Shown here: positions 1,898-5,495 of the stretch, one piece after another | Position numbering within the stretch: position 1 is the stretch's first letter | Layout of the letters: each line of letters opens with the position of its first letter | Origin: a virus | Taxonomy: Duplodnaviria; Heunggongvirae; Uroviricota; Caudoviricetes | Length of the DNA: 5,495 bases | Reading direction: 5' to 3' (one strand) | Virus record (IMG/VR): IMGVR_UViG_2713896775_000009 | Program-made: the position numbers and the translations under genes | Notes under the pieces: model-generated | The model's input: only the letters and a program-made list of their open reading frames with translations | Databases searched by the model: none | What the model was told of the DNA's origin: nothing

Positions 1898-2093
1898 TTC
1901 TGATCCTCTTCAAAAGGCTACCTGTTACTGGTCGATTTAAGTCAACCTTTACCGCTGATTCGTGGAACAGATACTCTCTTCCATCCTTAACCGGAGGAGG
2001 GAATATCCTGCACTCGCGTACCCATCGACGAACTGTTTCAAGGCTTCTTGGGCGTCGCTGGCGTGCGTTCCACTCCTGAAGTGTCAAGTACAT
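1875..2093 (-). CDS. xis: Excisionase Xis, 72 aa
   Basis: Translation MYLTLQEWNARQRRPRSLETVRRWVRECRIFPPPVKDGREYLFHESAVKVDLNRPVTGSLLKRIRNGKKAKS matches lambda Xis as I recall it; 23-nt overlap with int, as in lambda. Confidence 0.95.
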   Translation of the reverse strand: MYLTLQEWNARQRRPRSLETVRRWVRECRIFPPPVKDGREYLFHESAVKVDLNRPVTGSLLKRIRNGKKAKS

Positions 2094-2103
2094 CGCAAAG
2101 TCT

Positions 2104-2119
2104 CCGCAATTACACGCAA
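2104..2119 (-). promoter_or_regulatory. cII-binding site / -35 region of the pI (int) promoter
   Basis: Minus-strand sequence TTGCGTGTAATTGCGG contains the TTGC-N6-TTGC cII recognition repeat just upstream of the xis ATG, the position recalled for lambda pI. Confidence 0.5.
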
Positions 2120-2120
2120 G

Positions 2121-2140
2121 AAAAAACCGCCATCAGGCGG
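2121..2140 (-). terminator. Putative intrinsic terminator (minus strand) upstream of xis
   Basis: Hairpin ccgcc-atca-ggcgg (2127-2140) followed on the minus strand by UUUUUUCUU (complement of 2119-2126). It is part of the lambda-identical backbone. Confidence 0.4.
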
Positions 2141-2300
2141 CTTGGTGTTCTTTCAGTTCTTCAATTCGAATATTGGTTACGTCTGCATGTGCTATCTGCG
2201 CCCATATCATCCAGTGGTTATAACAGTCGTTGATGTTCTCTGCTTCGATAACCCTGTTGAATGGCTCTCCATTCCATTCACCTGTGACTCGGAAGTGCAT
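2133..2300 (-). CDS. Small lambda-backbone ORF, 55 aa (lambda orf55-like), unknown function
   Basis: ATG at 2300 with GGAG about 7 nt upstream; translation MHFRVTGEWNGEPFNRVIEAENINDCYNHWMIWAQIAHADVTNIRIEELKEHQAA. The TGA stop lies in the loop of the 2127-2140 hairpin. Below the 60-aa cut-off of the supplied ORF track, so found by hand. Confidence 0.5.
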   Translation of the reverse strand: MHFRVTGEWNGEPFNRVIEAENINDCYNHWMIWAQIAHADVTNIRIEELKEHQAA

Positions 2301-2312
2301 TTATCATCTCCA

Positions 2313-2337
2313 TAAAACAAAACTCGCCGTAGCGAGT
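2313..2337 (-). terminator. Putative intrinsic terminator (minus strand) downstream of the 142-aa cargo gene
   Basis: Hairpin actcgc-cgta-gcgagt (2322-2337) followed on the minus strand by UUUGUUUUA (complement of 2313-2321). It lies at the left boundary where lambda identity resumes. Confidence 0.45.
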
Positions 2338-2383
2338 TCAGATATAATTTCCACCAAAGGCAGTAGTTGCTTGATGCTAAGAA

Positions 2384-2812
2384 TTATTCAATATCTATTC
2401 CTGTAATCTCTTTTATCTTTTTCCTTGCAAAGCCTTTTGCTAGTGATTTTGAAACACTCATAAGTGTACTAATTCCCTCATCCTTAAAGTTTGTTTTTAT
2501 AGCTTGCCAGACATCCTTTTGACGTAAGTCAGCAATAAAATCATGCCCTCTTGCTGTCAACCTCAGTGGTACTTCGATCCAACTATATCCAACACCTTCC
2601 CCTAACGCTTTGGACAATATATGACCGAACCCAGGTTTTCCATCAACCCTGACTATTAATTCGTAGTCACATAATAATCGCATATGGAAAATAAAATCTT
2701 GGTCATATCTATTAAAGCCATTATCCTCTAGTTCACTAAGCATCGTGTCAGGGCCACGAGTTTTTTCGAATGCGATAAGTAGATCTTTTAGATATTGCTG
2801 GTCTAATTTCAT
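2384..2812 (-). CDS. Hypothetical protein, 142 aa (cargo gene A), function unknown
   Basis: ORF with ATG start and a strong GGAGG Shine-Dalgarno 5 nt upstream, TAA stop. It is not part of lambda. No family recognised with confidence; the N-terminal MKLDQQYLKDLLIAFEKT may resemble small phage-associated DUF-type proteins. Confidence 0.7.
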   Translation of the reverse strand: MKLDQQYLKDLLIAFEKTRGPDTMLSELEDNGFNRYDQDFIFHMRLLCDYELIVRVDGKPGFGHILSKALGEGVGYSWIEVPLRLTARGHDFIADLRQKDVWQAIKTNFKDEGISTLMSVSKSLAKGFARKKIKEITGIDIE

Positions 2813-2822
2813 TGCCGCCTCC

Positions 2823-2834
2823 GTGACATGTCAC
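2823..2834. repeat. Perfect 12-bp palindrome GTGACATGTCAC in the intercistronic spacer
   Basis: Read directly from the sequence; it lies between the stop of cargo gene B (2841) and the SD/ATG of cargo gene A (2812). Confidence 0.6.
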
Positions 2835-2840
2835 AGAGAT

Positions 2841-3179
2841 TTATATCATTAATTTTGTTTCGTGCCAGCCTTTGGTCACCCAGCATTGTGAGTCACCATT
2901 ACACGGGCATGAATTAACAGGAACTCTCTCGCCGCACTTACCGCACCGTTTTCTGCTGATCGATTTTATACGCCAGCGCACACGTGCATCATCCTGGCGG
3001 CTCAGTAACGCGATGTACTCACCAAACTCGCAAGGCGCACGCCTGAAGCGACGCGTGGCACAGTTACGCTCCAGCATTTCAATTTCCTGAGCATCAAGTA
3101 CAAGCTCCAGCTTACGCATACCGGATGATGCTTGCTTGGCTCTCTGATCGGCTTTGTGCTCTGTTGCTGATTTAGCCAT
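2841..3179 (-). CDS. Hypothetical Cys-cluster (zinc-ribbon-like) protein, 112 aa (cargo gene B), function unknown
   Basis: ORF with ATG start, AGGA about 9 nt upstream, TAA stop. The C-terminus carries CGKCGERVPVNSCPCNGDSQC (C-x2-C...C-x-C...C). It is not lambda Ea8.5, whose sequence I recall as different. Confidence 0.65.
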   Translation of the reverse strand: MAKSATEHKADQRAKQASSGMRKLELVLDAQEIEMLERNCATRRFRRAPCEFGEYIALLSRQDDARVRWRIKSISRKRCGKCGERVPVNSCPCNGDSQCWVTKGWHETKLMI

Positions 3180-3372
3180 TCTGCTTTTCCTGCATCAGGA
3201 GAAAGACAATCATGGCGGCGCGGATACTTCCGGTATCTTTATACGCGATATTCCCCTTCAATGGCACATACAAGAAGAGAGCCATCAACAGGAGTGATTG
3301 AGGAATCGACAACCAGCAACGCTTAATTATCTATAGTGTCGTATTTGCTTCATAAAATATGGCGAATAACAC

Positions 3373-3404
3373 AAAGCCCGCAGCAGCTCATTGTGCGGGC
3401 TTTT
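3373..3404. terminator. Putative bidirectional intrinsic terminator downstream of cargo gene C
   Basis: Hairpin aaagcccgca / tgcgggcttt (7-bp GC-rich core 3376-3382 / 3394-3400, extendable by A:U pairs, 11-nt loop), flanked by an A-run on one side and a T-run on the other. It sits ~70 nt past the stop of gene C. Confidence 0.45.
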
Positions 3405-3472
3405 CTTATACCTACTTCCTAGAGATAATTCTATGGAGGCATTAAATCAATACTGTCATTGGTAATATCATA

Positions 3473-4087
3473 TTATCTAAAAGTCTTTCCACTTTTAACA
3501 TCTAGGTATATTCTGTTCGACAACGTCATTCCTCCGCAATATGTGAAATAGATGTTTTCACCCTTATTGCTTGATGCCATCCACCCTCCGATTTCCTTAA
3601 AATCGCTTTCCGTGCAGACCCCTTCATTTATTAACTTCCTAGCTGCCGAAGAAAACTCTTTTTTGTATATACGGTAGTCATCAGATCCTTTGATTAAAGT
3701 ATCATCTCCGCTCGCATTTTCAGCAGGATCTGATGGCCTTTCACTGCTAAGATCACTAAATTTAACCCATTCTGAAAACTTGCCATTAACGATTCCATTT
3801 TTTCTTGTGCAGGATTTATTACCTTCTTTAATATATTCGCTTTCCCCTCCAACACATGAGGCTGAATATGGCTCAGTTATACGAACCCATTCACCTTTTT
3901 TTTCTAGAAAATCTACGCCTTCCCTGAAAAATAGTTTCCCAGCCACTCCACATTTACTTGAAGGGCAGGTATGTCTTTCCGTTCGATCAACAACAACCCA
4001 TAGTTTTGATTCATTTTTTGCCATTGCCGATGGTATTTGAGATGAGACAATTAACGTAAGCCCTAAAATTAGTATTGATTTTTTCAT
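3473..4087 (-). CDS. Secreted/periplasmic protein with N-terminal signal peptide, 204 aa (cargo gene C), function unknown
   Basis: ORF with ATG start and AAAGGAA SD, TAA stop. N-terminus MKKSILILGLTLIVSSQIPSAMA-KNE is a classic Sec signal (basic n-region, hydrophobic core, AxA cleavage motif). Six Cys in the mature part. Visibly AT-rich. Confidence 0.75.
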   Translation of the reverse strand: MKKSILILGLTLIVSSQIPSAMAKNESKLWVVVDRTERHTCPSSKCGVAGKLFFREGVDFLEKKGEWVRITEPYSASCVGGESEYIKEGNKSCTRKNGIVNGKFSEWVKFSDLSSERPSDPAENASGDDTLIKGSDDYRIYKKEFSSAARKLINEGVCTESDFKEIGGWMASSNKGENIYFTYCGGMTLSNRIYLDVKSGKTFR

Positions 4088-4385
4088 TGTAATTTCCTTT
4101 TACTTTTTACAAAGCGTTTAATCATGGCTGATTATCTCTAAGTGTAGTAACAGCCTTGTGCGAAACATGTTACCAAATCGCCATTTCAGTGTATCCGCAG
4201 TTAGGCTGCCACTTCAAGGATTCCTAATTACATGGTACGTAAGCGTAAAATCCCGTTGGTTGGCGGGTAATAACTCTGATCAAATCTCCCTTGTCTTTTG
4301 CTCTTACGTATGCAGCTCTTGTGTATTCAACCCAGGCCTCCAGTTCAGCAATACGCTTACTTCCATCCGAGATAACACCTTCTAC

Positions 4386-4637
4386 TCACGCTGCTCGTTG
4401 AGTTTTGATTTTTGCTGTCTCCAGCTCAACACGCAGTTTCCCCACCGTTAGCGCAATATCCTCGTTCTCCTGGTCGCGGCGTTTGATGTATTGCTGGTTT
4501 CTTTCCCGTTCATCCAGCAGTGTCAGCACAATCGATGGTGTTACCAGCTCATGGAAAAGGTCCGCGTCAAATCCCCAGTTGTCAGGCATTGCCTGCTCTG
4601 CCGCTTCACGCAGTGCCTGAGAGTGAATTACGCTCAC
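4386..4637 (-). CDS. ea22: Ea22-like protein, N-terminal 83 codons ending at an in-frame TGA (truncated or chimeric)
   Basis: GTG start overlapping the orf73 stop (GTGA), with AGAGAGG SD. Translation MSVIHSQALREAAEQAMPDNWGFDADLFHELVTPSIVLTLLDERERNQQYIKRRDQENEDIALTVGKLRVELETAK... matches the lambda Ea22 N-terminus as I recall it. The same frame continues open past the TGA to 4227. Confidence 0.75.
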   Translation of the reverse strand: MSVIHSQALREAAEQAMPDNWGFDADLFHELVTPSIVLTLLDERERNQQYIKRRDQENEDIALTVGKLRVELETAKIKTQRAA

Positions 4638-4855
4638 TTCGAACCTCTCTGTTTACTGATAAGCTCCAGATCTTCCTGGCAACTTGCACAAGTCCGACAA
4701 CCCTGAACGGCCAGGCGTCTTAGCTCATCTATGGGATCGCCACACTCACAACAATGAGTGGCAGATACAGCCTGGTGGTTCAGGCGGCGCATTTTTATTG
4801 CTGTGTTGCGCTGTAATTCTTCAATTTCTGATGCTGAATCAATGATGTCTGCCAT
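4634..4855 (-). CDS. orf73: TraR/DksA-family C4 zinc-finger protein, 73 aa (lambda orf73)
   Basis: Translation MADIIDSASEIEELQRNTAIKMRRLNHQAVSATHCCECGDPIDELRRLAVQGCRTCASCQEDLELISKQRGSK carries the CxxC-x17-CxxC TraR-type motif and lies between ea22 and the orf61 region, as in lambda. Confidence 0.9.
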   Translation of the reverse strand: MADIIDSASEIEELQRNTAIKMRRLNHQAVSATHCCECGDPIDELRRLAVQGCRTCASCQEDLELISKQRGSK

Positions 4856-4910
4856 CTTCCATTAATCCCTGAATTGTTGGTTAATACGCTTGGGGGTAAA
4901 TGCGAGCAAT

Positions 4911-4931
4911 AAAAAAGGAGCCTGTAGCTCC
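4911..4931 (-). terminator. Putative intrinsic terminator (minus strand) between the orf61 region and orf73
   Basis: Hairpin ggagc-ctgta-gctcc (4917-4931) followed on the minus strand by UUUUUUAUU (complement of 4908-4916). Confidence 0.4.
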
Positions 4932-4953
4932 CTGATAATTTTGCTTTTCATGT

Positions 4954-5235
4954 TCATCGTTCCTTAAAGACGCCGTTTAACATGCCGATTGCCAGGCTTA
5001 AATGAGTCGGTGTGAATCCCATCAGCGTTACCGTTTCGCGGTGCTTCTTCAGTACGCTACGGCAAATGTCATCGACGTTTTTATCCGGAAACTGCTGTCT
5101 GGCTTTTTTGATTTCAGAATTAGCCTGACGGGCAATGCTGCGAAGGGCGTTTTCTTGCTGAGGTGTCATTGAACAAGCCCCATGTCGGCAAGCATAAGCA
5201 CACAGAATATGAAGCCCGCTGCCAGAAAAATGCAT
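4954..5235 (-). CDS. Small lambda early-left-region protein, 93 aa from the first ATG (71 aa if started at MTPQQ, ATG at 5169)
   Basis: Open frame with TGA stop. The internal ATG at 5169 has a GGGG SD-like element about 5 nt upstream; the ATG at 5235 has no obvious SD. Corresponds to the lambda orf61 locus but in a different frame and length here. Confidence 0.6.
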   Translation of the reverse strand: MHFSGSGLHILCAYACRHGACSMTPQQENALRSIARQANSEIKKARQQFPDKNVDDICRSVLKKHRETVTLMGFTPTHLSLAIGMLNGVFKER

Positions 5236-5245
5236 TCAGTGGTTG

Positions 5246-5437
5246 TCATACCTGGTCTCTCTCATCTGCTTCTGCTTTCGCCACCATCATTTCCAGCTTT
5301 TGTGAAAGGGATGCGGCTAACGTATGAAATTCTTCGTCTGTTTCTACTGGTATTGGCACAAACCTGACTCCAATTTGAGCGAGGCTATGTGCCATCTCGA
5401 TACACGTTCTTAACTCAACAGGAGATGCTTTGTGCAT
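5246..5437 (-). CDS. orf63: Lambda Orf63-like protein, 63 aa
   Basis: Translation MHKASPVELRTCIEMAHSLAQIGVRFVPIPVETDEEFHTLAASLSQKLEMMVAKAEADERDQV; ATG with a GGGGGG SD; position and length as lambda orf63. Confidence 0.9.
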   Translation of the reverse strand: MHKASPVELRTCIEMAHSLAQIGVRFVPIPVETDEEFHTLAASLSQKLEMMVAKAEADERDQV

Positions 5438-5495
5438 ACAGCCCCCCGTTTATTATTTATCTCCTCAGCCAGCCGCTGTGCTTTCAGGGGATTTC
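5410..5495 (-). CDS. 3' end of an orf60a-like ORF (partial, enters from beyond the window end)
   Basis: Minus-strand frame is open from the window edge, ...NPLKAQRLAEEINNKRGAVCTKHLLLS, to a TAA at 5410-5412. It overlaps the orf63 start by 28 nt, as recalled for the lambda orf60a/orf63 pair. Confidence 0.5.
   Translation of the reverse strand, partial: NPLKAQRLAEEINNKRGAVCTKHLLLS

Follow-up and report, generated by a model that had tools for sequence, protein, structure and literature searches.

Gene T (positions 2841 to 3179, − strand, 112 amino acids [aa]) lies in a 5,495-nucleotide (nt) stretch of viral DNA (IMG/VR record IMGVR_UViG_2713896775_000009, Caudoviricetes), called the window throughout, which is the left arm of a lambda-like prophage. 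We describe here a 12-bp palindrome that is linked to the stop codon of the T family, an association that is new here. We modestly favour the reading that T is a dimeric ribbon-helix-helix (RHH) DNA-binding protein with a structural four-cysteine (Cys4) metal module and that the palindrome is its cognate site. The T family is common, yet it has no Pfam model and no solved structure, and our literature searches returned no experimental paper on it and none describing the function of its members epsilon15 gp49 and N15 gp46.

The window T is an ATG-started open reading frame (ORF) whose translation holds LELVLDAQEIEMLERN (residues 24 to 39) and RKRCGKCGERVPVNSCPCNGDSQCW (residues 76 to 100); its coordinates and both peptides had been given correctly in a model-made description of the window (the first-pass annotation), and the coding conservation on which that description depended also held in a Ka/Ks check. 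The median pairwise dN/dS was 0.20 (265 usable pairs from 40 intact homologues), which identifies T as a protein-coding gene under purifying selection, and the value between the window T and its nearest phage relative, TL-2011b, was 0.27. T belongs to PHROG 536 (“transcriptional regulator”; E value, 7.3e-48; residues 1 to 111, 115-position profile), a family that includes epsilon15 gp49 (70.5% identity to T, tblastn), N15 gp46 (29% identity; E value, 1e-13; BLASTP), and TL-2011b gp20, and whose RefSeq names are “hypothetical protein” or “transcriptional regulator.” Homologues formed 394 clusters at 90% identity in a word-indexed protein search and, in a set of 1.84 billion proteins, 104 representatives at 50% identity. 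They are present in 55 phage records, in 672 of 5,426 complete Escherichia coli genomes (about 12%), and in every enterobacterial epsilon15-like phage recovered by terminase similarity (terL at least 80% identical); the distant subfamilies by themselves account for at least 570 viral contigs. For the window T, Pfam and PADLOC gave nothing above threshold, NCBIfam gave only sub-threshold matches, and sequence and profile searches against the Protein Data Bank (PDB) gave no meaningful match.

Two public records need annotation corrections. The region from 17009 to 17487 of phage Chlobot (PP925838) is split into a “UmuD-like protein” coding sequence in another frame and a 46-aa “transcriptional regulator,” an apparent mis-annotation that misses the intact 112-aa T ORF (17149 to 17487), and in phage vB_EcoP_ZX5 the feature under the T match is mislabelled NinX. 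An identity of T with P22 NinX (DUF2591) was considered and rejected: BLASTP against P22 NinX gave an E value of 0.067 over 9 residues, and the NinX-like sequence is a remnant upstream of T.

The AlphaFold2 monomer model of T (57 sequences; mean pLDDT, 88.2) runs from a helix (residues 5 to 19) through an unpaired extended stretch (22 to 28) and two helices (30 to 43 and 52 to 74) to isolated beta-bridges near the cysteines and a last helix (100 to 107), with pLDDT of 90 to 95 in the region of residues 22 to 74. The predicted RHH core (residues 21 to 70; 2970 to 3119, − strand) is composed of the strand at 22 to 28 (RKLELVL, with alternating hydrophobic residues L24, L26, and L28), helix A (30 to 43), a long RRPGRxPY loop, and helix B (52 to 74). 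This is the beta-alpha-alpha topology of RHH proteins; the model was judged structurally similar to solved members of the class, and its strand is unpaired, as expected for one chain of an RHH dimer. Foldseek with the model against the PDB returned nothing at an E value of 0.001 or below. A profile of the T family aligned with E. coli YbfE, an RHH-domain protein in RefSeq, over T residues 8 to 70 (hhalign, 90.9%; E value, 1.1e-6), and T gave a weak NCBIfam match to the YbfE family NF008671 (E value, 0.0068; 16.8 bits against a cut-off of 62). The predicted strand and helices, together with the YbfE alignment, place LELVLDAQEIEMLERN in the RHH beta-strand and helix A; the first-pass annotation had taken it for a charged helical N terminus.

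A basic helix does precede the core (residues 5 to 19; 3123 to 3167, − strand; consensus AERKAAQRARQ; from AlphaFold and the alignment). Its residues K9, Q12, R13, and Q16 are invariant among close relatives, and it aligns to the basic stretch of YbfE. The homologue in phage SPN1S (L063, 38348 to 38656, 102 aa) has a different N terminus (MATTTTRRQNLLELELVLD) that lacks this helix. The RHH core, the cysteine module, and the stop-codon palindrome are all retained there, so that T may not need the basic helix for whatever ties it to the site. T is very probably a nucleic-acid-binding module and most likely binds DNA through the RHH domain. The first-pass annotation had proposed a small metal-binding module interacting with nucleic acid or protein: the conserved cysteine cluster is of a metal-binding kind and nucleic-acid binding is probable, but the DNA-binding part is N-terminal.

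The cysteine module occupies residues 76 to 107 (2859 to 2954, − strand). C79 and C82 form a C-x2-C knuckle, C91, together with C93, belongs to a loop, and the helix at 100 to 107 is capped by C99; the codons of these cysteines are at 2943 to 2945, 2934 to 2936, 2907 to 2909, 2901 to 2903, and 2883 to 2885. Conservation was counted in 170 family members of 95 to 160 aa, where C79 is kept in 164, C82 in 163, and C99 in 162; all three, plus at least one cysteine in the loop at 83 to 98, are present in 157, and the 13 exceptions to the four-cysteine pattern are frameshifted or truncated sequences. The C-terminal cluster is thus as the first-pass annotation described it. C93 is found only in close relatives, C40 is common and not invariant, and C50 is peculiar to the window lineage (tyrosine at this position in 159 of 170). 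The dominant spacing is C-x2-C-x8-C-x-C-x5-C, and distant subfamilies have C-x2-C-x7-C-x9-C or C-x2-C-x10-C-x7-C. Such a pattern reads as the signature of a structural Cys4 metal site, and we infer that the four cysteines hold a structural metal, probably zinc. The more specific suggestion of a zinc ribbon did not stand: there is only one CxxC knuckle, the second ligand pair is widely spaced, no zinc-ribbon fold or profile matched, and the C-terminal part resembles no solved fold. The T family is an uncharacterised variant of the RHH class, as predicted from the model and the YbfE alignment, with a Cys4 tail.

The perfect palindrome GTGACATGTCAC, our candidate T site, lies at 2823 to 2834 in the 28-nt gap between the T stop (2841 to 2843) and the start codon of a DUF2513 gene (2810 to 2812), where it touches the Shine-Dalgarno sequence of the latter. 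It was found by comparing the 3′ flanks of T in 51 loci. The form GTGAC-N2-GTCAC, most commonly GTGACATGTCAC, is at the T stop in 34 of these and its 10-bp core in two more; its distance from the stop is −3 to +7 nt (as much as +24 nt in three frameshifted copies), and the first half-site usually includes the TGA stop. Beyond the 3′ edge of the palindrome the sequences are no longer conserved, regardless of the next gene (terS, DUF2513, ninB, xis-like, or P2-like portal). The same link is seen in 69 unique viral loci sampled from subfamilies below 40% identity, where an exact copy adjoins the T stop in 30 and a copy with at most one mismatch in 41; about 10 further loci carry a copy 190 to 340 nt downstream, past a small ORF. 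Across 1.33 Mb of T-bearing DNA, the form with a 2-bp spacer occurs 126 times against 1.3 expected, with eight copies for a 3-bp spacer and zero to three copies each for spacers of 0, 1, 4, 5, and 6 bp. The central dinucleotide is uniform within a genome and variable by subfamily, and some subfamilies carry two copies 21 to 31 bp apart, which is typical operator geometry. A literature search found no paper containing the 12-mer.

Further copies lie elsewhere in T-bearing phages. Epsilon15 and SPN1S (82% terL identity) each carry three exact AT-centred copies in the same three places (past terL, where the last structural gene ends, and at the T stop), with a degenerate copy at the Rz stop (epsilon15 [L056], 2142, 19517, and 39612; SPN1S [L063], 2174, 19662, 38653, and 26722). 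These are the 3′ ends of the terS-terL, structural, and early-right blocks, with the degenerate copy at the lysis block, and an intrinsic terminator follows closely on both the copy at the last structural gene and that at the T stop. In TL-2011b the palindrome is found at the T stop and again after ant; Chlobot has the T-adjoining copy only, and N15 has three TG-centred copies (GTGACTGGTCAC), one overlapping the gp46 stop. The palindrome is absent from lambda, P22, and the left 28 kb of N15. The idea that the N15 copies are the SopB centromere was dropped, as they differ from the sopC-type repeat.

We read the palindrome as the T site because the linkage holds across unrelated backbones and deep divergence; the absence of another conserved neighbour, the operator-like pairs, the uniformity within genomes, and an RHH precedent for the same half-sites strengthen this reading. 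Several observations weigh against it. No curated RHH model matched above threshold in a Pfam scan of 35 members, which gave single sub-threshold matches to RHH_5, RHH_1, and RepB-RCR_reg; canonical RHH proteins have a shorter inter-helix loop; and the alignment of T with E. coli MatP, the RHH precedent, scored 0.2% in hhalign. About one-quarter to one-third of T genes lack an adjoining copy, the palindrome also occurs at the stops of other, unrelated small ORFs, and in two loci (L015 and L039) and several viral loci T is separated from the palindrome by an inserted ORF. To these is added the state of the window allele, described below.

The copies at other ORF ends and the inserted ORFs suggest that the palindrome may be a unit-boundary element that T merely tends to adjoin. 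T would then be an RHH/Cys4 transcription factor, usually the last gene of its operon, next to a generic boundary element such as a terminator-associated signal, a recombination junction, or a site for a host (MatP-like) factor. The palindrome also follows terL, the last structural gene, ant, and Rz, and a terminator-like hairpin is found no more than 60 nt away for 23 of 59 copies, compared with 7.8% of random positions. This explanation is possible, though on the unlikely side. The palindrome is kept where T is not operon-terminal (ZF40, and the window and a Yersinia locus [L045], with DUF2513 10 to 12 nt on), the linkage spans lambda-, epsilon15-, P2-, ZF40-, and N15-like backbones and persists at less than 30% protein identity, the T-less phages lambda and P22 have no copy, and no other gene is consistently co-inherited with the palindrome.

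In the favoured reading, T would dimerise through its beta-strand and insert the resulting ribbon into the DNA major groove, and the Cys4 metal module could stiffen the tail or offer a surface for contacts between dimers or with a partner. We infer that the dimer recognises GTGAC-N2-GTCAC at the stop of its own gene. Epsilon15-like phages present it with repeats of this site at the 3′ ends of other major transcription units, mostly just upstream of an intrinsic terminator, and the window with a single site against the DUF2513 ribosome-binding site. The consequence of binding is speculative; candidates are an influence on whether transcription reads through or terminates where units end, regulation of the gene downstream (DUF2513 in the window), and DNA bridging.

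In epsilon15-like, P2-like, ZF40-like, and N15-like phages, where T has its usual home, it lies distally in early operons. In epsilon15-like phages and prophages (14 loci), T is the final early gene ahead of terS. It lies upstream of ninB and a Q-like gene in ZF40-like elements (nine loci) and upstream of xis/int in the prophages of Pantoea and Erwinia; in Xenorhabdus P2-like prophages the portal and terminase genes are opposite it, and in N15 it stands in an operon downstream of a Q-like gene. A role as late-gene activator, by analogy with the Ogr/Delta zinc fingers and from the position before terS, is unsupported because the epsilon15 record annotates repressor operators before terS and because lambda-, ZF40-, and N15-like phages that carry Q have T as well.

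No neighbouring gene is consistently linked to T in the 51 loci; what follows it is mostly terS, ninB, xis-like genes, or a terminator. This bears on the idea that T and the DUF2513 protein make up a toxin-antitoxin or defence pair, with T as the RHH antitoxin. T does lie 28 nt upstream of DUF2513 in the window, and the order T-palindrome-DUF2513 recurs in Yersinia frederiksenii (L045), but DUF2513 follows T in only 2 of the 51 loci (and lies elsewhere in a third), no toxin gene is conserved next to T, neither T nor the DUF2513 protein has a PADLOC match, and the C terminus is a structured Cys4 module, not a disordered toxin-binding tail. For want of a conserved partner the antitoxin reading was rejected, and we give it a very slim chance.

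Small genes between T and terS were seen behind LexA-box-like sequences (CTGT-N8-ACAG), about 40 to 80 nt downstream of the palindrome, in four loci (L009, L011, L015, and L017). They are umuD-like in L011 and L015, where the gene is directly downstream of T, and unrelated in L009 and L017, and they have the look of SOS-controlled morons at the T-terS junction. N15 carries the UmuD-like gene 26.

The state of the window allele raises the question of whether its T is a decaying passenger with little or no function, a damaged allele in a defective prophage remnant. R8H, P45F, G46R, Y50C, and I60S depart from near-invariant residues (majority residue in at least 133 of 170); G69W is a further difference, at a less conserved site (glycine in 111 of 170), and a sister allele is truncated in Escherichia sp. 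E1V33. Many E. coli chromosomes and large plasmids contain segments that match the entire window at 100% identity; identical copies lie on 145- to 454-kb records of the complete-genome collection, some presumably plasmids. In AREA_C483, the one RefSeq genome examined, the segment is a truncated prophage remnant that lacks the pL/N region, breaks off after orf60a, and runs into fragments of the Rac prophage (rrrD, rzpD, and trkG) amid IS26, IS5, and Tn3 elements. We nonetheless consider a mere passenger quite improbable. The reading frame is intact, the dN/dS against TL-2011b is not neutral, the palindrome is perfectly preserved, and T is 100% identical in Chlobot, an isolated, viable phage with neighbouring genes in the same order, and 78 E. 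coli genome records carry it at 99% identity or more. Reduced function of the window allele is possible.

In the window, positions 742 to 2348 correspond to lambda att-int-xis-orf55 (98.9%, blastn) and positions 4339 to 5495 to the span from the 3′ part of lambda ea22 to the start of orf60a (96%, blastn). Lambda homology starts within the att core, and the flank is a Dps-family gene, not gal or bio. The genes lie on the − strand: int (827 to 1897), xis (1875 to 2093), an orf55 homologue (2133 to 2300), the DUF2513 gene (2384 to 2812; Pfam DUF2513; E value, 8.5e-11) directly 3′ of the palindrome, T, a gene for a 204-aa protein (3473 to 4087) with a signal-peptide- or lipoprotein-like N terminus, a weak SH3_3 match, and membership in PHROG 8310, truncated ea22 (4386 to 4637), and the lambda Orf73 homologue, a TraR/DksA-type C4 zinc-finger protein (4634 to 4855), as well as orf61-like and orf63-like genes. 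Between the two lambda-like parts, a 1,990-bp substitution (2349 to 4338) with three genes, T among them, stands in place of lambda ea8.5 and the 5′ part of ea22.

The nucleotide match to TL-2011b (90%, blastn) extends from 58 nt upstream of the T start to just inside the T 3′ end, and the window palindrome lies about 14 nt past its end. The stretch immediately upstream of T (3180 to 3237, − strand; IRAAMIVFLLMQ) is a remnant 3′ tail of a DUF2591/NinX-like gene, as identified by blastn against TL-2011b, whose gp19 is a DUF2591 protein, and by likeness to the C terminus of P22 NinX. Judged from these sequence matches, the T module of the window is an import from an epsilon15-like phage, with the DUF2591/NinX-like remnant marking its upstream edge. 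In a promoter scan the − strand gave no sigma-70-like candidate from 2000 to 4500, and a bidirectional GC-rich hairpin terminator (3373 to 3403) lies upstream of T; in an intact phage (Chlobot, for example), T would thus rely on antiterminated early transcription for its expression.

Several other features of this region were recorded. Just upstream of the T module lies a UmuD-like internal fragment of 26 codons (3242 to 3319, − strand; LLVVDSSITPVDGSLLVCAIEGEYRV), labelled in RefSeq as a “DNA repair protein” pseudogene. A 12-nt inverted repeat (3325 to 3336 and 3419 to 3430) flanks the terminator, and the 204-aa gene with the terminator after it has the appearance of a self-contained moron. 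An Rfam scan of the window found no RNA family. A 72-aa antisense ORF lies opposite T (2872 to 3090, + strand), with a similar open frame in 34 homologous loci; T codon usage, of which it would be a shadow, is the simplest explanation. The Orf73 homologue is a second small zinc protein of the early-left region, unrelated to T; Orf73 is reported to reprogram host transcription directly (PMC9239242).

The substitution also bears on the earlier proposal that T occupies the position of lambda Ea8.5 and may be a non-homologous functional stand-in for it, as a small zinc-ribbon protein. Ea8.5 (PDB 2M7A) is a small early protein of the exo-xis region, a homeodomain/zinc-finger hybrid exclusive to lambda (PMC8614690). 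T does lie inside the block that replaces ea8.5, but not in its precise slot, since the DUF2513 gene is the one nearest to xis/orf55. The two proteins are alike in being small and Cys-containing and in combining a DNA-binding type of fold with a zinc site (for Ea8.5, PMC8614690), both of them predicted in T. Their sequences do differ, as the first-pass annotation had stated (no BLASTP alignment at an E value of 100 or below; hhalign, 0.2%), and their folds are of different classes, RHH in T as predicted and homeodomain-like in Ea8.5; the T cysteines do not form two knuckles, and no zinc-ribbon fold matched. T is spread over many phage types and is a core gene of epsilon15-like phages. Its usual home, distal in the early operons of other phages, makes a dedicated replacement of Ea8.5 unlikely, and we give the stand-in explanation a very slim chance.

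The analysis yields a hypothesis that is cheap to test, with a 12-bp site, a predicted fold, and four candidate metal ligands. If T binds the palindrome, the repeated signal at the transcription-unit ends of epsilon15-like phages would be explained.

Among known systems, the only sequence-level relative of T that was found is YbfE (LexA regulated; NF008671), with the basic helix, the strand, and both helices covered by the alignment. YbfE lacks the cysteine module and is itself without established function. The canonical RHH proteins (Arc, Mnt, CopG, MetJ, ParD, MazE, and TacA) are matched by T in the predicted beta-alpha-alpha core, the hydrophobic pattern of the strand, and a short palindromic candidate site; the met box of MetJ is an 8-bp palindrome. 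T differs from them in the longer RRPGRxPY loop, the Cys4 C-terminal module, the position of the candidate site 3′ of the gene and not at a promoter, and the lack of a conserved toxin partner.

The closest parallel for the site is MatP/matS, the organiser of the E. coli Ter macrodomain (PDB 3vea). The matS consensus is GTGACRNYGTCAC (PMC6907758), and its half-sites, GTGAC and GTCAC, are those of the T palindrome. The spacer is 3 bp in matS and 2 bp in the T palindrome, where it is strictly kept (126 against 8 copies). Five related viral contigs (L079, L082, L087, L101, and L119) carry a matS-length sequence, GTGACACCGTCAC, with a 3-bp spacer about 400 to 550 nt upstream of T, at the same relative position. 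Both proteins have a C-terminal extension after the RHH domain, and the T Cys4 tail is at the position of the C-terminal end of MatP, which mediates bridging between dimers (PMC11564523). MatP has an N-terminal four-helix bundle and a coiled coil, whereas T lacks the bundle and has the Cys4 module instead; MatP serves about 23 chromosomal sites, whereas T is phage borne with one to four sites per genome. An alignment by hand suggests, as a lead, a similar layout of a basic stretch, (K/R)K-hydrophobic-(D/E)-L, and two helices. Membership of T in the MatP family was rejected at the sequence level: no hhalign or Pfam match was obtained (MatP models PF06303 and PF17414 gave none at an E value of 1 or below for 35 T members), the four-helix bundle is missing, and the spacer is off by one bp; a search for MatP homologues gave near-identical sequences only and was unsuited to building a MatP profile.

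By analogy, then, T and its palindrome resemble MatP/matS in recognition logic. The stronger proposition, that they form a phage-borne, MatP/matS-like, site-specific DNA-organising system, with T dimers bound to GTGAC-N2-GTCAC where the phage's transcription units end and with the Cys4 tail linking dimers or recruiting a partner, we put forward as distinctly unlikely. Were it true, it could mean control of read-through at terminators, a new type of boundary or antitermination control in epsilon15-like phages lacking a Q-type late regulator, or, alternatively, the bridging or positioning of phage DNA or interference with MatP, MukBEF, or the divisome on matS-like DNA. Binding of the palindrome by T would in itself make the pair a natural one-bp spacer variant of MatP/matS, informative on how RHH proteins read GTGAC half-sites.

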